This document shows positions 3,583 to 53,624 of a stretch of DNA of 64,000 bases, one piece after another. Numbering within the stretch: position 1 is the stretch's first letter; each line of letters opens with the position of its first letter. The stretch is taken from assembly GCA_965203325.1 (NCBI GenBank), contig OZ241875.1, positions 832,001-896,000 on the forward strand. The letters run 5' to 3'. The stretch comes from a bacterium. GTDB lineage: Bacteria; UBA8248. The notes under the pieces were generated by a model, which worked only from the letters and a program-made list of their open reading frames with translations, ran no database searches and was not told where the DNA came from. Both the position numbers and the translations under genes were made by a program.

Positions 3583-6384
3583 ATGGAGACGAATCCTCAG
3601 GATATCGGGGAAGTACCGGTAAGGGAGGATGGATCGTCCATCTCGACGAACGGGGCGCAGCAGGACGGCTCCGGCGATTCGAGGTATCTGCCCGACTCGG
3701 CGGGCGCGCCCCTTCCCGACGCTGAAACCGAACTCGACGAGGTAGAAACCGACGAGTGGCTCGAATCGCTCGACTACGTCCTTCAAACCCGGGGTCCCGA
3801 GCGTACGAAGATCCTCCTTCGCCATTTGCAGGTCCATGCGGTGCGCGCGGGCGTCGTCCGCCCGTTTTCGGCGAACACGCCGTATATCAACACCATCCCG
3901 CTGGAAAAGCAGCCCCCCTTCCCCGGGGACCGGACGATCGAGCGGCGGATCAAGAGCCTCGTCCGCTGGAACGCGATGGCCATGGTCGTGCGCGCCAACC
4001 GGGAAGACGCCTCCATCGGCGGGCACATCTCCACCTACGCATCGGCCGCCACGCTGCTCGAAATCGGGTTCAACCACTTCTTCCGGGGCAAGAAGCATCC
4101 CTCGGGCGGCGACATCATCTACTTCCAGGGCCACAGCGCGCCCGGCATCTACGCCAGAGCGTTCCTCGAAGGACGCCTGACAGAGAGGAATCTCGAAAAC
4201 TTCCGGCGCGAGCTCAAAGAGGGGGGCGGCCTCTCCTCCTACCCGCATCCCTGGCTGATGCCCGATTTCTGGGAGTTCCCCACCGTCTCGATGGGACTCT
4301 CTCCCCTGATGGCGATATACCAGGCGCGCTATCTGCACTATCTGGAAGACCGAGGCCTCAAGCCCGCGACGGGCCAGAAAGTCTGGGCGTACCTGGGCGA
4401 CGGCGAGATGGACGAACCCGAATCGCTGGGCGCCATCACCCTGGCCGCGCGGGAAAAACTCGACAACCTGATCTTCGTCATCAACTGCAACCTGCAGCGC
4501 CTCGACGGCCCCGTCAGGGGCAACGGGAAAATCATCCAGGAACTCGAAGCCGCCTTCCGGGGCGCGAAGTGGAACGTCATCAAGGTCATCTGGGGAGACG
4601 ACTGGGACCCCCTCGTGGCGATGGATGATGAGGGCGCGCTCCTCCAGCGGATGAACGAGACAGTCGACGGCCAATACCAGAAATACAGCGTCGAGAAGGT
4701 CAAGGAGGGCGATTACCTGCGCGAGCATTTCTTCGGTGGCGACGAGCGGTTGAAGGCGATGGCCGACACCGTGCCCGATGAGAAACTCAACAGGATGCGG
4801 CGCGGGGGACATGACCCCGAAAAAGTGTTCGCCGCCTACCAGGCCGCCATGGAATGCAGGGGTCTCCCCACGGTCATCCTCGCGAAAACAGTGAAGGGGT
4901 ATGGCTTGGGCGAGGGCGGCGAGGGCCGGAACGTCACCCACCAGCAGAAAAAGCTCAATGAGGATGAACTCAAGGAGTTCCGCACGCGCTTCGAGATTCC
5001 CATGTCCGATGAGGAAGTGACAGAGGCGCCGTTCTACCGGCCGTCGGAGGACAGCCCCGAAATTCAATACCTGAAAGAAAAGCGGAAAAAACTCGGCGGA
5101 TACGTTCCCACGAGGCGGAGCATCTCCACGCCGCTCAAAGCGCCGCCTGATGAGTTGTTCGAGGAATTCCTGGAAGGCACGGATGGGCGCGAAGTCTCCA
5201 CGACCATGGTGTTCGTCAGAATCCTGAGCAAGCTGCTCCGCGACGAGGGATTGGGCAAACTCATCGTTCCCATCGTGCCCGATGAAGCGAGGACGTTCGG
5301 CATGGAAGCGCTGTTCCGGCAAATCGGAATCTACTCCCACGCCGGACAGTTGTATGAGCCCGTCGACCGCGACAGCCTCCTGTACTACAAAGAAGCGCAA
5401 GACGGACAGATCCTTGAAGAGGGAATCACCGAGGCGGGTTCGATGGCGTCGTTCATCGCCGCCGGGACCGCCTACGCCACCCACGGTGTGAACACCATCC
5501 CGTTCTACATCTACTATTCGATGTTCGGCTTCCAGCGCATCGGCGATCTGATATGGGCGGCGGCGGACATGTGCGCGCGGGGTTTCCTGATCGGAGGGAC
5601 GGCCGGCAGAACCACCCTGAACGGGGAAGGACTCCAGCACCAGGACGGCAACAGCCACCATCTCGCCTATCCCGTTCCCAACCTTCTCACTTACGACCCG
5701 GCTTTCGCCTTCGAGATGGCGCTGATCATTCAGGACGGGATTCGCAGAATGTACCAGGAACAGGAAAAAATCTTCTACTACCTCACCGCCTACAACGAGA
5801 ACTACGCCATGCCTCCGATGCCCGAAGGGGCGCAGGAGGGCATATTGAAGGGCATGTATCTCTTCAAGCGCTCGGAGGCGGACTCGGGTATCAAAGCGCA
5901 ATTATTGGGCAGCGGCACCATCATGAACGAGGTGCTCCGGGCGCAGGAAATGCTGGAGAAACGATATTCGATTGCAGCGGACGTCTGGAGCGTCACGAGC
6001 TACAAGGAACTCAGGCGAGACGCCCTGGAAGTCGAGCGATGGAACATGCTGCACTCGGACAGCGCACCGAAAACTCCATACGTGACGCAATGCCTCGCGC
6101 GCGCACCCGGCGTTTGCGTGGCGGCCTCGGACTATGTGAAGGCCACGCCCGATTCGATTTCGAAATGGGTGCCCAAACCCATGATTTCGCTGGGAACCGA
6201 GGGGTTCGGGCGAAGCGAATCGAGGGAATCCTTGAGAGATTTCTTTGAAATCGATGCGCGCTACATCGTGCTCGCCACTTTGTACAGCCTTGCGCGAGAC
6301 AAGAAGATATACCCCGAACTCGTGAACAAAGCGATGAAAGACCTGGATATCGACCCCGAAAAAACCAACCCGATGATGTCCTGA
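3583..6384 (+). CDS. aceE: Pyruvate dehydrogenase E1, homodimeric type
   Basis: GGHISTYAS, SYPHP, GDGEMDEPES ThDP motif, GEGLQHQDG, GFGRS. Confidence 0.97.
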   Translation: METNPQDIGEVPVREDGSSISTNGAQQDGSGDSRYLPDSAGAPLPDAETELDEVETDEWLESLDYVLQTRGPERTKILLRHLQVHAVRAGVVRPFSANTPYINTIPLEKQPPFPGDRTIERRIKSLVRWNAMAMVVRANREDASIGGHISTYASAATLLEIGFNHFFRGKKHPSGGDIIYFQGHSAPGIYARAFLEGRLTERNLENFRRELKEGGGLSSYPHPWLMPDFWEFPTVSMGLSPLMAIYQARYLHYLEDRGLKPATGQKVWAYLGDGEMDEPESLGAITLAAREKLDNLIFVINCNLQRLDGPVRGNGKIIQELEAAFRGAKWNVIKVIWGDDWDPLVAMDDEGALLQRMNETVDGQYQKYSVEKVKEGDYLREHFFGGDERLKAMADTVPDEKLNRMRRGGHDPEKVFAAYQAAMECRGLPTVILAKTVKGYGLGEGGEGRNVTHQQKKLNEDELKEFRTRFEIPMSDEEVTEAPFYRPSEDSPEIQYLKEKRKKLGGYVPTRRSISTPLKAPPDELFEEFLEGTDGREVSTTMVFVRILSKLLRDEGLGKLIVPIVPDEARTFGMEALFRQIGIYSHAGQLYEPVDRDSLLYYKEAQDGQILEEGITEAGSMASFIAAGTAYATHGVNTIPFYIYYSMFGFQRIGDLIWAAADMCARGFLIGGTAGRTTLNGEGLQHQDGNSHHLAYPVPNLLTYDPAFAFEMALIIQDGIRRMYQEQEKIFYYLTAYNENYAMPPMPEGAQEGILKGMYLFKRSEADSGIKAQLLGSGTIMNEVLRAQEMLEKRYSIAADVWSVTSYKELRRDALEVERWNMLHSDSAPKTPYVTQCLARAPGVCVAASDYVKATPDSISKWVPKPMISLGTEGFGRSESRESLRDFFEIDARYIVLATLYSLARDKKIYPELVNKAMKDLDIDPEKTNPMMS

Positions 6385-8522: not shown

Positions 8523-10043
8523 CTATTCCTCCGCGCCGTGACCGTTCAGGTCGGCGGGGTCGGTCACCTCGATGCTCCCCGTGAGCCCGAAAAGGCGCTG
8601 CATCTTCTTCCTGAAGGCCGGGGTGAAGAGTTTTTTGGCATAAAACCGGCCCGCCACCCTTTTGTTCACCTGCGCCAGGGTGGGATAGACATGAACCGTA
8701 TCCACCACCTCTTTGACGTGCATCTTTTTGCGGACGGCCAACACGAACTCGTGCAATATCTCTCCCGCCGCAGGCCCGACCAAATCGGCCCCCACGAGCC
8801 TGCCCTTCTCGTCGCACACCACCTTGCAAATGCCCTCCGTCTCTCCATCCAAAACGGCGCGGTCCACGCGGCTCATCGGGAAGCGGAGCACCTGGATGCG
8901 ATTCGCCCCCAAAGCCGCTTCGGCGTCGGCTTCGCTCAAGCCGACGTGCGCCGCCTCGGGCGTGGTGTAGATCGTCCACGGCACGGCGTCATAGTTCGTT
9001 TTCTTCTTGAGAAACGGGAGCGGAATCCCGAAAGGCGCGCTGAAGAGCATGTTCCTGAGCGCAACGCCCGCCTCATATTCCGCCATGTGGGTGAAGAGAT
9101 ACTGCCCCCGGATGTCGCCGGCGGCGAAGATGCGCGGATTCGCGGTCTGGAGATACTCGTCCGTCTCCACGCCGCGCGGCGTGTGCTTCACGCCCGCCTT
9201 TTCGAGGTCCATCCCGCCCACGTTGGGCGAGCGGCCGGTAGCGATGAGGAGCTGATCGCAAGCCCATTCCCTCTTTCCCGACGGCGTATCGGCCTCCAGG
9301 AAAATCTCCTCGCCGCGTTTCTCGACCTTTTGCGTGTTCACGTTGAAGTGTAGCTTGAGGCCGGATTCCGCCAGGGAATCGGCAAGAATCCCGGCCATCT
9401 CCTTATCGAGCCTCGGCAGGAGCTTCGGCGCGCTTTGCAGCACTTCCACCTCGGCGCCGAGTTGCTGAAACGCCTGGGATAGTTCCAGGCCGATAGGTCC
9501 CGCTCCCAGCACCACCAGGCGTCTCGGCAATTCCTCCAAATCGAATACGGTTTCGTTCGTGAGATAGGGCACGCTATCGAGACCGGCGATGGGCGGCACG
9601 AAGGGAGAACTCCCCATGGACAGCAAAAACCGCTTGGCCCGCAGCGTCCTGTCCCCTACCTGAAACGTATCGGGGCCGGTAAAGGCGCCATCGCCGAATA
9701 TCACCTCGATGCCCATGCCCTCGAAGCGCTCGGGCGCATCGTGCTCGCCGATGTGGGCCTGGGCCGCCTTCATCCGCTTCATGACGCGGGGAAAATCGAC
9801 CCGCACGCCGCTTACGTCAATCCCGAACTCGGGCATCGAGCGCGCCTGCGCGGCCAGCCTCGCCGAGCGGATCAGGCCCTTGGAGGGCACGCATCCATAG
9901 TTCAGGCAATCGCCGCCGAGTTTCGCCTTCTCCACGAGTGCCGCCTTGGCGCCCAGTTGCGCAGCGCCCACTGAGGCCACCAAGCCACCGACCCCTCCCC
10001 CGATGGATACCAAATCAAACACCGATTCTTTTTGCATCTTCAT
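8523..10043 (-). CDS. Pyridine nucleotide-disulfide oxidoreductase (Lpd/MerA-like)
   Basis: GGGVGG FAD motif, GGDCLNYGCVPSK redox disulfide, GAGPIGLE, ATGRSPN; start 10043 or 10037. Confidence 0.9.
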   Translation of the reverse strand: MKMQKESVFDLVSIGGGVGGLVASVGAAQLGAKAALVEKAKLGGDCLNYGCVPSKGLIRSARLAAQARSMPEFGIDVSGVRVDFPRVMKRMKAAQAHIGEHDAPERFEGMGIEVIFGDGAFTGPDTFQVGDRTLRAKRFLLSMGSSPFVPPIAGLDSVPYLTNETVFDLEELPRRLVVLGAGPIGLELSQAFQQLGAEVEVLQSAPKLLPRLDKEMAGILADSLAESGLKLHFNVNTQKVEKRGEEIFLEADTPSGKREWACDQLLIATGRSPNVGGMDLEKAGVKHTPRGVETDEYLQTANPRIFAAGDIRGQYLFTHMAEYEAGVALRNMLFSAPFGIPLPFLKKKTNYDAVPWTIYTTPEAAHVGLSEADAEAALGANRIQVLRFPMSRVDRAVLDGETEGICKVVCDEKGRLVGADLVGPAAGEILHEFVLAVRKKMHVKEVVDTVHVYPTLAQVNKRVAGRFYAKKLFTPAFRKKMQRLFGLTGSIEVTDPADLNGHGAEE

Positions 10044-10098
10044 ATCCTCTCCAGACGGCGAAATGCGTCTCTTCCGCAACGAACGCGGAGCAGTCCGC

Positions 10099-11625
10099 TC
10101 AAGATGTTTCCTTTTCCAGGGGTTTCAGCCCGAACGAGAAGAACAGGAGCGCCATGAGCAAATAGCCGATAGCTATGCCGGGCGCCGCCCCCCAGCCGAA
10201 GAAGCTGACGACGCCGCCGGGCGTGATTCGCCAGGCGTGGATGACCCCGAACCAGCTCAATACCGCGCCGGCCAGCGCCCATCCTCCCGCCTGTTTCGGC
10301 TCCTTGTCCACAAGTTTGGCCACGATGGCGGTCATGATGATGGACGTGAAAAGAAAACCGCGCTCCAAAGTGACCATCCCGACGAGGTGGAATCCCGCCT
10401 TGGCGAACGCATCCTGCCCCACTTTCCACAAGTTCGTGCCCGCTCCCCTTAAGGAGGATTCCACCATCAGCAGACCCCACGCGGCGATGGCGGGTATCAA
10501 GCCGATGGCCACGGCCGGCCCGTGATTCTTCGGTACGGCCTGGAATGCCTGGGTGAGCATCATCACCCCGATCCATAGCATGAGGGCGAAGAGCGCCTCG
10601 CCCGGAATGATCTTGGAAAGCGCCGCTATCGAGCCGGTGAGGCAAAGGATCGTCATCACGACCCCGTTCATGGCGCTATAGCCGGAGCGCGCCCCGACTG
10701 CCTTCCAGGCAGGGTGTCCGATATATATGGTCGTGGGAAAACAACTGCCCAGACACGCCGCGAGAAGCGATCCTGCGCCGTTCACCGCCAGGGAACTGCC
10801 CGTATCGAAATTGTCTCCGCCCGCAGACGCGCTTTCGAGGCACATCAGGCTGCCGACAAGCGTCATCAGGCCCATGGGGATGGAAACCGCGAGGTAATCC
10901 CAGGCCAGCGGGCCGAAGAGAGCGTCTGACAAAGGACCGAAGGCGAAGGATGGAAGCGCAAGACCCACAGGCGCGGGGATGCCGCCCGGAAATCCTCTGA
11001 TGACGGCGGAGAGCACCACTCCCACAGCCACCGCCACGAGGCCGCCGGGCACACCGAAGGGGAACCGGAATCCGCCGAAATAATGGATCAGGATGATTCC
11101 CAGCGGGATCATGGAGAGGAGCGGATTCTCCCAGATTCTGAACGCGAAATCCATGGCGATGAACGTGAGCGCGATGCCTCCCAGTGCGGAGAGCAGGGCG
11201 GCCCTCGGCGCGACCCGCCTGATCCACCCGCCCGCCAGCGCACCGACGGTCTCGATCACCCCGCTCACGAAACAGGCCGCCATACCCGCCTTCCAGGCAG
11301 CCTCGGCGCTTCCGGTCTTGAGTTTCACCGGCAGCATGACGAAGAAGATAAATGCGAAAAGCGTCACCGTGTTCAGGCCGTAGGGCATGGCGGTCACGTC
11401 GTCGCGGCCCTCGCGCGCGGCCAGTCGCCGCGCCTGCCAGGTGTAGAAAAGATTTCCGCCGAGGAGGCTCAGCGCCGCTGCGGGCAACACGCGCCCGAAG
11501 ATGAGCGAATCGGGAAAACCCAGCAGCCCTTTCAAGAAGCTCACGATGAGAAGAAGGTTGATGAGGTTGTCCATCCACAGGCCGAAGAAGCCGTCCACAT
11601 CGCCCTTCACGAACCATTTGGACAT
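10099..11625 (-). CDS. NCS2/AzgA-like permease
   Basis: GDVDGFFGL, VTAMPYG, ESASAGGD, PTTIYIGHPAWK; many TM helices. Confidence 0.85.
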   Translation of the reverse strand: MSKWFVKGDVDGFFGLWMDNLINLLLIVSFLKGLLGFPDSLIFGRVLPAAALSLLGGNLFYTWQARRLAAREGRDDVTAMPYGLNTVTLFAFIFFVMLPVKLKTGSAEAAWKAGMAACFVSGVIETVGALAGGWIRRVAPRAALLSALGGIALTFIAMDFAFRIWENPLLSMIPLGIILIHYFGGFRFPFGVPGGLVAVAVGVVLSAVIRGFPGGIPAPVGLALPSFAFGPLSDALFGPLAWDYLAVSIPMGLMTLVGSLMCLESASAGGDNFDTGSSLAVNGAGSLLAACLGSCFPTTIYIGHPAWKAVGARSGYSAMNGVVMTILCLTGSIAALSKIIPGEALFALMLWIGVMMLTQAFQAVPKNHGPAVAIGLIPAIAAWGLLMVESSLRGAGTNLWKVGQDAFAKAGFHLVGMVTLERGFLFTSIIMTAIVAKLVDKEPKQAGGWALAGAVLSWFGVIHAWRITPGGVVSFFGWGAAPGIAIGYLLMALLFFSFGLKPLEKETS

Positions 11626-11801
11626 CGGGGTCTCCCCGTTCAGGGTTAAAAACGTCAATCCAGGCGCGCCGCGCCCTCGGGATAGTAAAACACGCGGGCT
11701 TTTTCGCCAAAGCGCGCGGGGCAGTTTTTCTCATCGAGATCGTTTTGATATGCTCCATCCATATACAAAAATCACTTTCGCGTTCACTCGGGAGAAAAGC
11801 G

Positions 11802-12554
11802 ATGGAAGCTGTCAAGGTCTACACGCGGCACGGGTGATACACCTGCGCCCTTACGAGAGAGTTTCTCTCGTCCAGCGGTTTGGAAGTCGTCAACCGGGAC
11901 TGTACGAACGACGCCGAGGCGCAGGCGGAATTGAAAGCACTCGGCATCAAGTCCCTGCCCGTCGCCGTACGCGGAGAGAACGTGGTGGTGGGCTATGACG
12001 TGGATGCGCTTCGCGAGGCCTTCGGCATCGAAGGGGAAGGCGCAGGCCCCCTCTCGTCCGAAAAGATGCTCCACTACTTCGAGATGGTATTCGACGCCCT
12101 GCGCCGCGTAGTCCGCCAGATTCCGCACGAAACCCTCGACTGGATATCTCCCGGCAGACCCCGCTCGCTTCGCCAGCTCACCTGGCACAGCTTCGAGCGT
12201 CCGGACCTGGTGATGCAGGCCCACGCATCGGGCGAATACACCGAGGAGATGGTGCGCCGGTATGAAACGATGGCGGACGATTACGATACCACCGAGGACA
12301 TTTGCGCCTATGGAGATGAAATTCAGGCCAGACTCACCGAATTCCTCACGGACGGCGGCGAGGCGCTCGCCAAGAAAGTATCGAGCTATATGGGGCCCAT
12401 CACCGTCCATGAACTGATGATCCTCTCCCTGGGACACGCCTTTCAGCATTTGCGGCAAACCTATCACTATTTCGGGATGCTGGAGATGGAGCCGGAAAAC
12501 CCGCTCAGGCCCGAGGATTACGAGGAAGTGCCCGTGCCCAAGGATCTGTTCTAG
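11802..12554 (+). CDS. Selenoprotein: glutaredoxin/NrdH-like domain (UxxC) fused to DinB-like domain
   Basis: GGAG RBS 11791, ATG 11802, reads MEAVKVYTRHG-TGA(11835)-YTCALTREFL in frame with ORF 11880..12554; SLPV cis-Pro motif and VVGYD of the Grx fold; TWH and GHAFQHLRQ histidines of the DinB fold. Confidence 0.85.
11853..11871 (+). promoter_or_regulatory. Candidate bacterial SECIS element
   Basis: Perfect 8-bp stem ACGAGAGA-GTT-TCTCTCGT with G-containing apical loop 23 nt downstream of the in-frame TGA. Confidence 0.65.
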
Positions 12555-12585
12555 ACCATACCTGAACCCACAAGGAGGCTGTCTG

Positions 12586-13863
12586 ATGCCCTCGAAAGAC
12601 ACGTTCCCCTTCCGCGCGAACCGCGACCGCATGAGGCGTGAGTTCAACGCCCAGGCGAAGATCGGCAAATACGGAAAAACGGGCCTGGATCGCGTGGCCT
12701 TCACACCGGTCTACAATGAGGTGCGCGACCTCGCCGAGGGCTGGATGAAGGCGGCGGGCCTCAAGACGCGCGTCGACGCCGTGGGCAACCTCTACGGAAG
12801 AAAAGAGGGCCGCGTGCGCGGGCTTCCCGCCGTGATGGCGGGCTCCCACCTCGATTCCCAAAGCCCGGGCGGACGATTCGACGGCCCCGCCGGCGTTCTC
12901 ACCGCTTTGGAAGCGTTCCGCCGCATCAATGAGACGGGAATCTCCCACGATCACCCCATCGAGATAGTGGCCTTCGTGGGGGAGGAATCCGCGTGCGGGA
13001 TGACGGTGTTCGGGAGCAGCGTCGCCACGGGCGTCGTGGGCGTGAAGGACTTGAAGAACACGGTGCATCCGCCCAGCGGAAAATCGCTCTATGAGGCCAT
13101 CGAGGCGGTGGGCGGGAGTCCTGCGCGCGTCCGCTCGTGCCGTATCAAGGAGGGCTCGCTCAAGGCATTTCTGGAGCTTCATATCGAGCAGGGCCCCGTG
13201 CTCGAATCGGCCGAAGTCCCCATCGGCATCGTGGACAGGGTGGTGGGATACACGAGAGGGGAGGTGCATTTCACGGGCGTCACGGCGCACTCGGGCGGAC
13301 AGCCCATGCCCTACCGCAAGGACGCGGGCATCGCTGCGGCGGACTTCATGGTGCGCATGGAAAACCTCGTGAACCGCGCGCCCGACTCCCAGCGCGTCAC
13401 GATCACTTTTGGGGAGATGGAGGCGCATCCAGGGTGGGTGTCCATCGTGCCCGGAGGCGCGAGGCTATCCTTTGATCTCAGAAGCAGAAGCCAGGCGGTA
13501 ATGGAGCGCATCCTCGGGCGGATGGAAAAGACCCTCTCCGCCATCGAGAAGGAACGCGGCGTAAAGGGCCGTCTGGCCGACGTGAAGAAGCTGGCCGTCT
13601 GCCCCGCTTCGAACAACATTCAAAAGGCGCTCCGGCGCGCATCCAAAGAAACGGGCCACGCTTCGCTTACGCTGTCGAGCGGCGGGGTGCACGACGCCTG
13701 CCGCATGGCGGAGATTTGCCCGATGGGCATGGTGTTCATCCCCTCGGTGGGCGGTCTCTCGCACACGCCCGAGGAGTTCACGCACTTCGACGACATGGTG
13801 AAGGGTGCGGAAATCCTCGCCTCCGCCATCACGCATCTGTCCAACGAGAAGGTGAAGGCGTAA
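12586..13863 (+). CDS. M20 Zn-dependent amidohydrolase (allantoate amidohydrolase/N-carbamoylase family)
   Basis: GSHLDS, GRFDG, GEES, ELHIEQGP, GGVHDA, GLSH motifs. Confidence 0.9.
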   Translation: MPSKDTFPFRANRDRMRREFNAQAKIGKYGKTGLDRVAFTPVYNEVRDLAEGWMKAAGLKTRVDAVGNLYGRKEGRVRGLPAVMAGSHLDSQSPGGRFDGPAGVLTALEAFRRINETGISHDHPIEIVAFVGEESACGMTVFGSSVATGVVGVKDLKNTVHPPSGKSLYEAIEAVGGSPARVRSCRIKEGSLKAFLELHIEQGPVLESAEVPIGIVDRVVGYTRGEVHFTGVTAHSGGQPMPYRKDAGIAAADFMVRMENLVNRAPDSQRVTITFGEMEAHPGWVSIVPGGARLSFDLRSRSQAVMERILGRMEKTLSAIEKERGVKGRLADVKKLAVCPASNNIQKALRRASKETGHASLTLSSGGVHDACRMAEICPMGMVFIPSVGGLSHTPEEFTHFDDMVKGAEILASAITHLSNEKVKA

Positions 13864-51626: not shown

Positions 51627-53624
51627 ATGTTCTCGATTCGGCGCGATTTGCCGGCGCCTCTGATTGCGGCGGCAGTCGCCGCGTTATTCCTGTTCTCCGG
51701 GCCCGCCGACTGGCTACGCGGCCCATCGCTTGATGCGCTATTTTTCCTTCGCGCATCGCTCTTCGATACGCCCCGTTCTCACGAACCGCCAATTTCAATC
51801 GTCGCCCTCGACGAGGAAACCTACCGTCGTCCGCCATTTCGCGGCACGCCCAAGGCCCTGTGGACGCCAGAAATCGGCCAAGTCCTGAGCGCCGTTCTCG
51901 ACGGCGGCGCGTCGGTGGTCGGCTTCGACCTCATCATGGCGACCTCGGCGGAAACGCGCCTACCGGGGCACGACCACGCACTCTTGTTGGCCCTCAGGCG
52001 CGGCAGCAAGCAGGGCCGTATCGTACTCGCGCGCGTCCAGCATCAGACCAAGCCAATCAGCCCCTTTCCCGGCCTTGCCATCGCCGCAGGACGCGGGCGC
52101 AACATTCGTTTCGCCAATGTTTTTTTCGATCCAGATGGTGTGGTCCGTCGCGTGCCATCCTTGTTCCGTGTGGCTACACCGCAAGGCGAAGTTTTGGAAC
52201 CGAGCTTCCCACTCGAGATCGCCGCACGCTACCGGGGAGTGACGCCTGAGCAAATCGGAGAGAACCGTGCCGGCCTGGGGAGTAAACCGATGCGCGGAAC
52301 GGCGAAAACCCAAGGTTTGTCGCTCAACTTCCAGTCGGGCTCGACAGCTTATCCGACTTACTCTCTTGCGGATCTCTACGCCTGCGCCAAGGCGGGACAC
52401 ACCGAATTCTTCCGCAAGGCCTTTGCCGGTCAGGTCGTTCTGTTCGGAGCGGTTCTCGACGCCGAAGATCGCCTCCTTACTTCCAAACGCTTTATCACCG
52501 GGGCTGAGCGCGACCGACAGGCCCCACGCTGCGTATACCCGGTCATGGAGGGTCTTTATCATAAGGACGTTCCCAGGCAACTCATCCCGGGCGTGGTCGT
52601 GCAAGCGACGGCAATCGACAACTACGTGCGTAACGCCGGATTGGTTTCGCCGACATTGGTGCCGGAGGAAGCGATTATCATCCTCTTCTCCATCCTGTGC
52701 GCGTGGCTCTTTCAACGGGCGCCCCTTGGCTGGTCGGTGGCGGGTATTCTCATTTTCGGCGCCGCATGGACCATTGTGGCCGCATACACGCTCCGACAAG
52801 GCGTCGTCCTACCTGGCCTAACCCTTGTGGTGGCACTGATTGCCGCCGCGGTCGTCGCCGTGGCGTATCGATATCTCGTCACAGACAAGGACAAGCGCGC
52901 GGTTCGCCATTATTTTTCGATGTACCTCTCACCGACGATCGTCGACCGGCTTATGGCCACCGGCGCCGCCCCTTCCCTCGGAGGAGAAAACCGCGAGGTA
53001 ACGATTCTCATCAGCGATGCCGAAGACTACACGGCCCTGAGTGAGAACATGACGCCCGAGCGCGTCGTCGACCTCGTCAATCACTATTTCGAAGTGCTCG
53101 CAGGCGCAGTCGAACGGCATGGAGGCTTCGTCGACAAATTCATGGGGGACGGCATGCTCGCGGTTTTTGGCGCTCTTATCGATGAGCCTGACCACGCGGC
53201 CAACGCCGTCGCCGCCGCATTGGAACTCCAAGCCCTTACCATTGCTGATTCCAAACTCCTCCGCCCGGACGGCGGACCGCTCCGCACCCGCGTGGGGATT
53301 GCGACGGGGCCGGTGGTGGTCGGGAATATCGGTTCCCGCACACGTCTGAACTATACCGTCATCGGCGATACGGTGAATCTGGCGGCCCGACTCGAATCGG
53401 AAAACAAGGCGCAAGACACATCGATTCTGGTGGCGGAAGATACCGCGCGCGCCGCCGGGCTTGAGGGTTTCGATTTCGTAAGCCGCATTACTGTCCGGGG
53501 ACGAATCGCGGAAGTCGCCGCGTACACGCCAAAACGGCTACCGCCACAACCCGATTCTTCCGAAGTGGGCATACAAGAGAATTCGGCGGAGGCTAAAAGA
53601 GAGATATCACCGGAAAACCAATGA
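51627..53624 (+). CDS. CHASE2-domain class III adenylate cyclase
   Basis: IVALDEET, VGFDL, DPDGVVRR, PGVVVQA, three TM helices, then TILISD, DKFMGDG, YTVIGDTVNLAARLE. Confidence 0.92.
   Translation: MFSIRRDLPAPLIAAAVAALFLFSGPADWLRGPSLDALFFLRASLFDTPRSHEPPISIVALDEETYRRPPFRGTPKALWTPEIGQVLSAVLDGGASVVGFDLIMATSAETRLPGHDHALLLALRRGSKQGRIVLARVQHQTKPISPFPGLAIAAGRGRNIRFANVFFDPDGVVRRVPSLFRVATPQGEVLEPSFPLEIAARYRGVTPEQIGENRAGLGSKPMRGTAKTQGLSLNFQSGSTAYPTYSLADLYACAKAGHTEFFRKAFAGQVVLFGAVLDAEDRLLTSKRFITGAERDRQAPRCVYPVMEGLYHKDVPRQLIPGVVVQATAIDNYVRNAGLVSPTLVPEEAIIILFSILCAWLFQRAPLGWSVAGILIFGAAWTIVAAYTLRQGVVLPGLTLVVALIAAAVVAVAYRYLVTDKDKRAVRHYFSMYLSPTIVDRLMATGAAPSLGGENREVTILISDAEDYTALSENMTPERVVDLVNHYFEVLAGAVERHGGFVDKFMGDGMLAVFGALIDEPDHAANAVAAALELQALTIADSKLLRPDGGPLRTRVGIATGPVVVGNIGSRTRLNYTVIGDTVNLAARLESENKAQDTSILVAEDTARAAGLEGFDFVSRITVRGRIAEVAAYTPKRLPPQPDSSEVGIQENSAEAKREISPENQ

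Follow-up and report, generated by a model that had tools for sequence, protein, structure and literature searches.

A predicted selenoprotein that fuses a glutaredoxin-like UxxC domain to a DinB domain, and its Sec- and Cys-containing relatives

Positions 11802-12554 on the forward strand of the stretch of bacterial DNA analyzed here, a 64,000-nucleotide (nt) segment of contig OZ241875.1 from the UBA8248 lineage that we refer to as the window, very probably form a single gene for a 250-residue selenoprotein, in which a glutaredoxin (Grx)-like domain carrying a UxxC motif (U, selenocysteine or Sec) is fused to a DinB domain. A first-pass annotation of the same DNA had proposed a hidden selenoprotein at this place, and the proposal is borne out by a conserved frame that runs from an upstream ATG across an in-frame TGA, by a hairpin linked to that TGA, by a complete Sec system in the genome, and by homologues that carry cysteine (Cys) instead.

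A reading frame across an in-frame TGA

The frame that begins at ATG 11802 comprises 250 codons with a single in-frame TGA and ends at TAG 12552-12554. With the TGA read through, its N-terminal peptide is MEAVKVYTRHG-U-YTCALTREFL. The program-made list of open reading frames (ORFs) places the start at TTG 11880, 26 codons 3' of the ATG, which gives a product of 224 residues. The GGAG ribosome-binding motif, the upstream ATG, the TGA, the TTG start of the listed ORF, and the motifs T-W-H (H129, 12186-12188) and H212-x3-H216 (12435-12449) described in the first-pass annotation are all found where it had placed them. The window genome holds one copy of the gene, with the following features:

11791-11794, + strand: Shine-Dalgarno GGAG, 7 nt 5' of the ATG
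11802-11804, + strand: start codon ATG, found in 35/35 sequences; codons 4-11 are conserved as amino acids, with synonymous variation
11802-12035, + strand: glutaredoxin/NrdH-like thioredoxin-fold domain, residues 1-78 (Pfam PF00462, 7c10, Foldseek, VIA)
11835-11837, + strand: in-frame TGA at codon 12, predicted to be read as U12, the first residue of the U-Y-T-C redox motif
11844-11846, + strand: putative resolving cysteine C15 (TGC) of the UxxC motif, present in 26/26 sequences of the family-wide alignment and in 35/35 orthologues
11853-11871, + strand: hairpin resembling a selenocysteine insertion sequence (SECIS), with an 8-bp stem (11853-11860 with 11864-11871) and a GUU loop (11861-11863), beginning 18 nt after the U of the UGA (+19 to +37)
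12057-12479, + strand: DinB/YfiT-like four-helix-bundle domain, residues 86-226, with the putative metal triad H129/H212/H216 (Pfam PF12867, Foldseek, VIA)
12480-12554, + strand: C-terminal tail P-x-P-L ... V-P-V-P-x-D-L-F plus stop; P234, L235, P246, and F250 are (nearly) invariant in the clade

We compared the gene with 35 related loci from species-representative genomes, whose titles name Nitrospinota, Nitrospinaceae, Tectomicrobia, or unclassified bacterial metagenome-assembled genomes (MAGs). Counts given out of 35 sequences refer to the window together with 34 of these loci; the remaining one (L054) starts at residue 29, at a contig end, and was left out. Down to 53% protein identity, the ATG, a Shine-Dalgarno-like motif, and the TGA at codon 12 are present in 35/35 sequences, and a GGAG/AGGAG-type motif was seen in the 20-nt upstream strings of all 34 loci examined. 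Residues V4, K5, Y7, T8, R9, and G11 are invariant and are written by 2, 2, 2, 4, 5, and 4 codons, respectively. This invariance of residues under varied codons indicates purifying selection on the frame 5' of the TGA. Codons 13-26, between the TGA and the called start, are likewise conserved as protein and vary synonymously. Codon 27, where the called ORF begins, is TTG in 3 of the 35 sequences, with CTG in 15, CTC or CTT in 5, GTG or GTC in 5, and ATH in 7; since it is mostly not TTG, the called start is not conserved.

A search of genomes across the phylum, which overlap the related-locus set and are not independent of it, recovered the gene in 40 of 51, including 22/22 other genomes of the window genus. 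The first-pass annotation had considered a TGC or TGT at 11835 as evidence that would speak against a selenoprotein; instead, the TGA is kept, with exactly one in each of the 39/39 matches that cover the site, and the three matches without it are fragments that begin at residue 28, 61, or 163. We conclude that the gene starting at ATG 11802 is almost certainly real and translated through the UGA.

The machinery that such decoding requires is encoded in the same genome, which we searched as a single contig of 4.39 Mb (95% complete). As the first-pass annotation had suggested checking, selA (571 bits, cut-off 268), selB (393 bits, cut-off 242), selD (333 bits, cut-off 125), and tRNA-Sec (75.9 bits, cut-off 47) were all found above their curated cut-offs. 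TGA terminates 17/35 long non-overlapping frames of the window, where it is the commonest stop, and is therefore not a general sense codon here.

Further in-frame TGAs were seen during this search. The selD gene itself (G000:C1:1726679-1727641, - strand, the same as locus L011) has one in-frame TGA, within ...KAGG-U-GSK..., with a hairpin after it, and the SelD of the window genome is thus predicted to be a selenoprotein. One relative genome holds a second copy of the fusion gene (G047:C20:672-1436) at 48% identity, also with one TGA; to judge by these two sequences, paralogous Sec forms exist within the lineage. Three other pairs of frames joined by a TGA in the window were considered and rejected, as each consists of two separate adjacent genes and no Pfam domain spans the TGA: a MMPL transporter and an amine oxidase, adjacent (TGA 1879-1881), pyruvate dehydrogenase E1 and E2, adjacent (TGA 6382-6384), and a CHASE2 cyclase followed by nothing recognizable (TGA 53622-53624). 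These are not selenoproteins.

Domain architecture and relatives

The Pfam Glutaredoxin profile (PF00462) matches residues 4-56 with 34.3 bits (cut-off 22.9), in an alignment that starts at profile position 1 and crosses the TGA. When a profile of the clade was used as the query, the dithiol glutaredoxin cGrx1 (7c10) matched at E 1.4e-14, with U12-Y-T-C15 aligned with C-P-H-C. Both alignments, together with distant homologues that have C[ST]SC at the site, agree with the earlier proposal that the TGA stands at the N-terminal Cys of a Grx/NrdH CxxC motif. Farther along the protein, the Pfam DinB_2 profile (PF12867) matches residues 93-219 with 31.0 bits (cut-off 24.8). Together with the conserved ATG, Shine-Dalgarno motif, and TGA, these matches go well beyond what chance would produce.

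We modeled the protein with AlphaFold2 from an alignment of 25 of the 35 orthologues, leaving out near-identical and incomplete ones, and obtained a mean predicted local distance difference test score (pLDDT) of 90 and a predicted template modeling score (pTM) of 0.83. In this model, residues 1-75 adopt a thioredoxin fold, for which the best structural match is again 7c10 (Foldseek TMt 0.89, 39% identity; VIA Z 12.7, root-mean-square deviation (rmsd) 1.4 Å, 75 residues), with further matches to BC3987 and NrdH. The U12-Y-T-C15 motif just precedes the helix spanning residues 13-24, and P53, located before strand 3, is invariant family-wide. Residues ~81-236 form a DinB/YfiT bundle that superposes on DR0053 (6iz2) with TMt 0.83, Z 16.2, and an rmsd of 2.3 Å over 143 of 144 residues. 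Other matches to this bundle are YfiT (1rxq, Z 13.5), mycothiol-dependent maleylpyruvate isomerase (MDMPI, Z 13.0), 8f5v (Z 12.9), and BstA (Z 11.4), as well as the DinB domains of OvsA, EgtB, and SenA (Z 10.9-12.8). None of the solved chains matched in the structure search has both domains in this arrangement.

The DinB-like domain with a histidine triad that the first-pass annotation had recognized is therefore well founded, given the Pfam score above its cut-off, the DinB/YfiT fold matches, and the near-invariance of the triad: among 26 family-wide sequences, H129 and H216 occur in all and H212 in at least 90%, and all three are invariant in the clade. The histidine and the HxxxH motif sit at helices that we take to be equivalent to those bearing the metal ligands of BstA, mycothiol S-transferase (MST), and MDMPI. 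These enzymes (BstA, 5wk0; MST, 8f5v, with Zn and mycothiol; MDMPI, 2nsf/2nsg) share the four-helix bundle at Z 11.4-13.0 over 134-158 residues but differ from the window protein in being only 10-15% identical to it and in having neither a fused redoxin nor selenocysteine.

The same annotation had described the layout as similar to that of glutathione S-transferases (GSTs). Of this description, the order of the domains stands: canonical GSTs, too, have a thioredoxin-fold domain first and an all-helical one second, and a similar division of labor is conceivable. The likeness does not extend to the helical part, which is a DinB bundle, unrelated to the helical domain of GSTs. Superposition of GSTs is poor (Foldseek TM ~0.25, rmsd ~15 Å; VIA Z 8.4-9.2, rmsd 5.4-7.6 Å), and GST Pfam domains gave no match to the window protein at E up to 1. 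Judging from the predicted structure, "GST-like" is an analogy of layout and not a statement of homology.

A parallel for the N-terminal part is provided by the Sec-glutaredoxins (PF00462, UxxC), which have the same thioredoxin fold, Sec at the attacking position, and a SECIS hairpin just 3' within the coding region; in the window protein, however, the redoxin makes up only residues 1-78 of 250 and is followed by the fused DinB domain. NCBIfam also holds curated families of glutaredoxin-like selenoproteins, Uxx-star and HUGP/GUXX-star, one of them a fusion. Their similarity to our redoxin domain is weak (Uxx-star NF041212, 37.9 bits vs a cut-off of 66; related models, 22.0, 21.5, and 16.2 bits vs 72-325), and none has DinB in its name.

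A HMMER search of 1.84 billion cluster representatives returned 528 clusters at E<=1e-3 and 146 at E<=1e-10. Tallies of the representatives are based on the 149 matches listed besides the clade's own representative. Among these listed matches, 50 have an N-terminal CxxC (CSSC in 25, CTSC in 20), one has W at the first position, and 98 start 3' of the motif, many of them exactly at "M..KEFLS". U12 aligns with the first Cys of C[ST]SC in 24/24 of the distant full-length forms, which are 22-29% identical to the window protein. The family-wide alignment of 26 sequences has C15, G48, P53, H129, G198, H216, and R218 invariant and C12, H212, Q215, R119, and R121 at least 90% conserved, and the G-L-P-x-P motif of the C-terminal tail is also conserved family-wide. 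Two further cysteines, C34 and C168, are invariant in the window clade but not conserved across the family.

A scan of metagenomes found at least 518 relatives, of which 80 loci were kept. Its seed was an alignment of seven truncated forms, a seed of 17 distant truncated sequences having been too diverse, and the scan is biased toward Sec forms. At the first active-site position, 56 of the kept loci have a stop and 24 have TGC or TGT; of the 56 stops, 55 were confirmed as TGA by script, and the remaining locus (L061), which shows "*" in the printout, was counted as a Sec form. The TGA loci come from soil, freshwater, and marine samples. The first-pass annotation had named homologues with neither Cys nor Sec at this position as evidence that would speak against its proposal; instead, the distant homologues have Cys aligned with U12 and 24/80 loci have TGC or TGT. 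The Grx-DinB fusion thus appears, from sequence comparison, to be a large family of mixed Sec and Cys forms.

The Cys forms include "glutaredoxin / DinB superfamily domain-containing proteins", mostly from Pseudomonadota, that have the same two domains with C[ST]SC at the UYTC site and share the histidine triad, R218, and P53 with the window protein at 22-29% identity. They differ from it in having Cys in place of Sec, in the absence of the SECIS hairpin, and in bearing automatic names only. We regard them as predicted Cys orthologues or paralogues of the selenoprotein. Natural Sec/Cys pairs within the family could be used to test what selenium gains such an enzyme.

The hairpin past the TGA and the case for selenocysteine

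A bacterial SECIS element is a stem-loop located shortly past the UGA with a G (GU) in its apical loop, and both the position of the hairpin in the window gene and its GU-bearing apical loop fit this consensus. Across the 35 orthologues, 96.8% of the cells at the eight stem pairs are standard pairs, compared with 31-73% after a shift of the 3' partners by 1-3 columns, and the GUU loop is invariant. Two of the pairs carry compensatory changes: A-U replaces G23-C33 in three sequences, and U-A replaces C20-G36 in one. At codons 18-23, synonymous changes are suppressed; Thr18, for example, is ACG in 32/32 sequences, whereas four codons are used for Thr8. The hairpin of selD, which served as a positive control, has its apical loop ~29-33 nt past the UGA, vs +27-29 in the Grx-DinB gene.

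Because the K-E-F-L peptide that follows the motif is common to Sec and Cys forms, the Cys forms offer a natural control for the hairpin. In the wider family, Sec forms have a mean of 6.9/8 hairpin positions paired, with at least seven paired in 42/56, whereas Cys forms have a mean of 3.2/8 at the same positions and 0/24 reach seven. The codons diverge accordingly at the same residues: Sec forms use AAA (48/56), GAG (54/56), TTT (47/56), CTT (43/56), and TCG (52/56), and Cys forms use AAG (21/24), CTG (13/24), and TCG in none.

RNAalifold also outlined a possible lower stem, pairing 11843-11846 with 11875-11878 (alignment columns 9-12 and 41-44). Its column pair 12/41, which joins the third base of the Cys15 codon to the second base of the Ser/Asn25 codon, is C-G in 16, U-A in 10, U-G in 2, and a broken C-A in 7 of 35 sequences. 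This feature could be an extension of the SECIS stem or a coincidence.

Sequences that may derive from transcripts were also found. Four metatranscriptome runs contain small shares of the stretch, on contigs (aligned at 88% likeness) from relatives that are mostly 88-95% identical. Contig X20 (822 nt), from a ~90%-identical relative, covers 11773-12595, from 29 nt 5' of the ATG through the TGA site and the ORF into the M20 amidohydrolase gene that follows, and contig X17 spans 11790-12218. No contig covers 11600-11772, a gap that carries no information. Both read C at 11880, so that the TTG start is CTG there. Runs labeled as sponge metagenomes contain 0.57-0.64 of the sampled words.

Several of our results weigh against this interpretation or limit how far they carry it. 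The hairpin covariation is confined to a single divergent clade (L055-L057), leaving little that is independent. The difference in pairing between Sec and Cys forms (Mann-Whitney p = 1.7e-11) is uncorrected for relatedness. On a quick tree of 114 of 116 rows (L047 and L054 were dropped because the motif pattern missed their site), at least six Sec/Cys changes are needed, but supported branches hold only three independent contrasts; in one or two of them the hairpin changes in the same direction, in none does it change in the opposite one, and the sign test is not significant. In addition, 14/56 Sec forms of the wider family lack the hairpin (<=6/8 pairs), and several of these show another hairpin further 3'. 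The folding energy of the 66 nt past the UGA is ordinary (z -0.47; 58/200 shuffles fold equally well), and the energy of the whole region differs little between Sec and Cys forms (-14.6 vs -13.3 kcal/mol, p = 0.10); only the comparison of pairing at defined positions was informative. RNA-library contigs can include DNA and are blind to transcript ends, strand, and level, which makes them weak support for expression, and the 40 of 135 RNA-contig differences that were listed do not settle whether the TGA is retained in these relatives. A scan of the whole window at the Rfam gathering thresholds gave 0 matches, which is neutral with respect to a SECIS.

What the TGA does can be read in three other ways. 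It could be a true stop, with upstream codons 1-11 forming a leader or non-coding sequence and the product being the 224 residues from TTG 11880, that is, DinB plus a partial glutaredoxin remnant. This would match the output of the gene caller, and TGA is, as noted, the commonest stop of the window. However, only 6/35 orthologues have a codon that could serve as a start (TTG or GTG) at position 27, codons 13-26 are conserved as protein while codons 4-11 vary almost only synonymously, and the Pfam Glutaredoxin profile crosses the TGA from its first position; moreover, a start at residue 27 would lose strand 1, the active site, and helix 1 of the modeled fold. We therefore consider a true stop very improbable. 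Still less credible, to the point of being negligible, is the idea that the TGA arose through faulty sequencing or assembly, or through a recent nonsense mutation in a pseudogene. In a MAG-type assembly, an isolated in-frame stop might in principle be erroneous, but the same TGA recurs in 35/35 orthologues from independent assemblies, in 39/39 phylum matches, and in 56/80 metagenome loci, and the remainder of the gene is clearly under purifying selection.

The third reading accepts translation through the UGA but has it decoded as Cys, Trp, or Gly by a near-cognate or suppressor tRNA, yielding a CxxC-like redoxin that is not a selenoprotein. Sequence analysis cannot identify the inserted residue, and two database entries do show W at this position. 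The loci orthologous to these entries nevertheless carry TGA, and translation with an alternative code is the likely cause of the W; TGA otherwise acts as a stop in this DNA. The genome has the complete Sec system, the SECIS-like hairpin lies at the expected distance and is tied to the TGA forms, and an exchange of Sec and Cys at the attacking position of a CxxC motif is the classic selenoprotein pattern (PMC13188914 and PMC1088965, in the parts available to us). Decoding as a residue other than Sec is thus highly unlikely, if slightly less so than a true stop, and the residue at the UGA is in all likelihood Sec.

Possible function, genomic neighborhood, and annotation

On the selenoprotein reading, translation would start at ATG 11802, and SelA, SelB, SelD, and tRNA-Sec would decode the UGA at codon 12 as Sec, directed by the GUU-loop hairpin inside the coding sequence. 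From what is known of thioredoxin-fold selenoproteins, the U12 selenolate would then attack a disulfide, mixed disulfide, or S-conjugate, and C15 would resolve the resulting selenenylsulfide. We consider it likely that the domain is a redox-active UxxC oxidoreductase.

In DinB-family enzymes, a histidine-bound metal holds small-molecule substrates by their sulfur or selenium, and to our knowledge the characterized members of the DinB/YfiT fold all handle thiols or selenols at the metal site (thiol S-transferases; ergothioneine, ovothiol, and selenoneine synthases). By analogy with the DinB-family thiol S-transferases, the histidine triad of the window protein may bind a divalent metal and position or activate a thiol-bearing substrate, on which the redoxin could act in cis, making the protein a self-contained Sec-dependent thiol transferase or reductase. 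This coupling of metal-dependent thiol chemistry to the redoxin is a plausible proposal, to which we give somewhat less than an even chance. The fixed arrangement of a UxxC redoxin and DinB in cis would suggest a new way of coupling metal-activated thiol chemistry to disulfide/selenenylsulfide exchange.

The surroundings of the gene in the window comprise the following:

8523-10079, - strand: flavoprotein disulfide reductase of the MerA/dihydrolipoyl dehydrogenase/glutathione reductase class, two genes upstream, with a CLNYGCVPSK motif
10099-11658, - strand: multi-pass membrane protein of 519 residues, divergent and upstream, kept beside the gene in 28/35 related loci (66-99% identity)
11745-11772, + strand: promoter-like TTGATA-16-AAAAAT in the divergent intergenic region, a weak match (one site found vs 0.8 expected by chance)
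12586-13863, + strand: M20 amidohydrolase of the hydantoinase/carbamoylase family, 31 nt past the selenoprotein stop (TIGR01879, 349.7 bits vs a cut-off of 204)

The M20 gene, which scores just below the cut-offs for allantoate amidohydrolase and N-carbamyl-L-glutamate amidohydrolase ErtE, directly follows the fusion gene in 30/35 clade loci, including the most divergent ones. No terminator-like site was found on the + strand between the two genes, and they are probably co-transcribed in this clade. The 519-residue membrane protein matches no Pfam family (best E 0.034, at chance level) and no NCBIfam family, and may belong to an unclassified family of transporters. The flavoprotein remains below all NCBIfam equivalog cut-offs, the best score being that of an "FAD-containing oxidoreductase" subfamily (494.7 bits vs 620). 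It is present in 21/35 clade loci, with its linkage limited to close relatives; it is conceivable that it acts as the reductant of the selenoprotein. A Peripla_BP_6 binding protein also occurs near the gene in 21/35 clade loci.

For the wider family, neighbors were taken from 65 of the 80 metagenome loci, after 15 contigs of <= ~1.7 kb had been dropped, giving 60 downstream and 61 upstream ORFs. The downstream ones include TctC (5), selA (4), and isocitrate/isopropylmalate dehydrogenase (3), and the upstream ones include mnmA, a tRNA 2-thiouridylase (6), LysR (5), and a divergent GST (4). The four loci with selA next downstream (L077, L084, L093, and L101) are TGA forms with an "FTQPG-U-SSC" motif. 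This adjacency may mean that the fusion is a principal selenoprotein in those bacteria.

These surroundings bear on a different account of the DinB domain, in which the protein is a selenoprotein but DinB serves as a non-heme-iron oxidative module of the EgtB/OvsA/SenA kind, as a metal- or redox-sensing module, or as a substrate-binding module serving the M20 enzyme, with the redoxin keeping it reduced. EgtB, OvsA, and SenA match the bundle about as well as the S-transferases do (Z 10.9-12.8 and Z 11.4-13.0, respectively), M20 is adjacent in most clade loci, and the canonical genes for glutathione, bacillithiol, and mycothiol synthesis were not found above cut-off. Conversely, the window protein lacks the FGE-like partner domain found in the sulfoxide synthases, and M20 occurs at 0/60 downstream neighbors in the wider family and so cannot define the function of the family; the GST that adjoins the gene in 4/61 upstream neighbors is a loose fit to thiol-conjugate chemistry. 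We regard this alternative role as unlikely overall, though it is not far behind thiol chemistry coupled to the redoxin in our estimate.

That preferred role has difficulties of its own. In the 95%-complete genome, GshA (PF04262) and BshC were not found, and GshB (74.6 bits vs 299), MshC (288 vs 485), and EgtB (104.5 vs 360, over the FGE-like part only) remained below their cut-offs, the only such thiol-ligase matches being two homologues of the GCS2-family ligases. Identity to characterized DinB enzymes is only 9-17%, and the wider family has no universal partner gene, M20 included. A more specific picture, which we put forward as speculative and rather improbable in its entirety, is that of an unnamed but widespread family in which a selenol/thiol redoxin is joined in cis with a His3-metal DinB domain. 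Its members would be self-contained non-GST transferases or reductases whose substrate is a low-molecular-weight thiol or thione different from glutathione, bacillithiol, and mycothiol. Where the gene lies just upstream of selA, as it does in some bacteria, the enzyme would perhaps be a main reason for which the Sec machinery is kept.

In the literature, Glutaredoxin (Grx) PF00462 UxxC is named as a selenoprotein family in the accessible part of a 2026 review (PMC13188914), and the corresponding part of a Sargasso Sea survey lists "Glutaredoxin UXXC, 10 sequences" (PMC1088965). DinB and YfiT have 0 mentions in the available text of that review, as does DinB in that of the BSepDB paper (PMC13326102), and a full-text literature search for a selenoprotein with DinB, with or without glutaredoxin, returned no relevant paper. 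According to the sections of the BSepDB paper that we could consult, MAGs of the UBA8248 lineage are among the ten largest bacterial selenoproteomes, and one such MAG (54 genes) shares its isolate name with the record behind L046 (PMC13326102). Homology-based catalogs, BSepDB included, may already be counting such genes as "Grx".

Curated models do not capture the fusion either. No NCBIfam model reached its cut-off for the window protein, which had 14 sub-threshold matches (YruB, 46.4 vs 88.55; NrdH, 38.2 vs 85.75; mycoredoxin, 16.9 vs 89.5; Grx3, 16.6 vs 90), or for six Cys forms; NCBIfam has many selenoprotein-specific models, yet none for the Grx-DinB family. We thus propose that the Grx-DinB fusions, some with Sec and others with Cys, make up a distinct and widespread family that is undescribed in the literature searched. 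Within the scope of our literature and database searches, its Sec forms would be the first case of selenocysteine in a protein with a DinB/YfiT domain.

Database entries for the family are incomplete. Cys forms bear names such as "glutaredoxin", "hypothetical protein", or "DinB family protein", and a search of the ESM Atlas with a Cys-form relative as the query returned the automatic names "DinB superfamily/Glutaredoxin domain-containing protein", most commonly in Pseudomonadota. For the clade itself, 35/37 close database homologues are called at 154-229 residues without the N-terminus, as "DinB family protein", "hypothetical protein", or unnamed, which confirms the expectation of the first-pass annotation that standard gene callers would truncate the protein. 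The other 2/37 have 250 residues with W at position 12 and come from contigs of 1.1-1.2 kb; the codon at the loci of these W-bearing entries (L055 and L057) is TGA. All public gene calls that we found for the clade are thus wrong, as is also the case for no fewer than 56 metagenome loci.

The database proteins P0014, P0022, and P0063, of 250 or 150 residues, have Trp exactly at the TGA position of the corresponding loci. The Trp in public entries most likely stems from a translation table with TGA as Trp having been chosen for short contigs.

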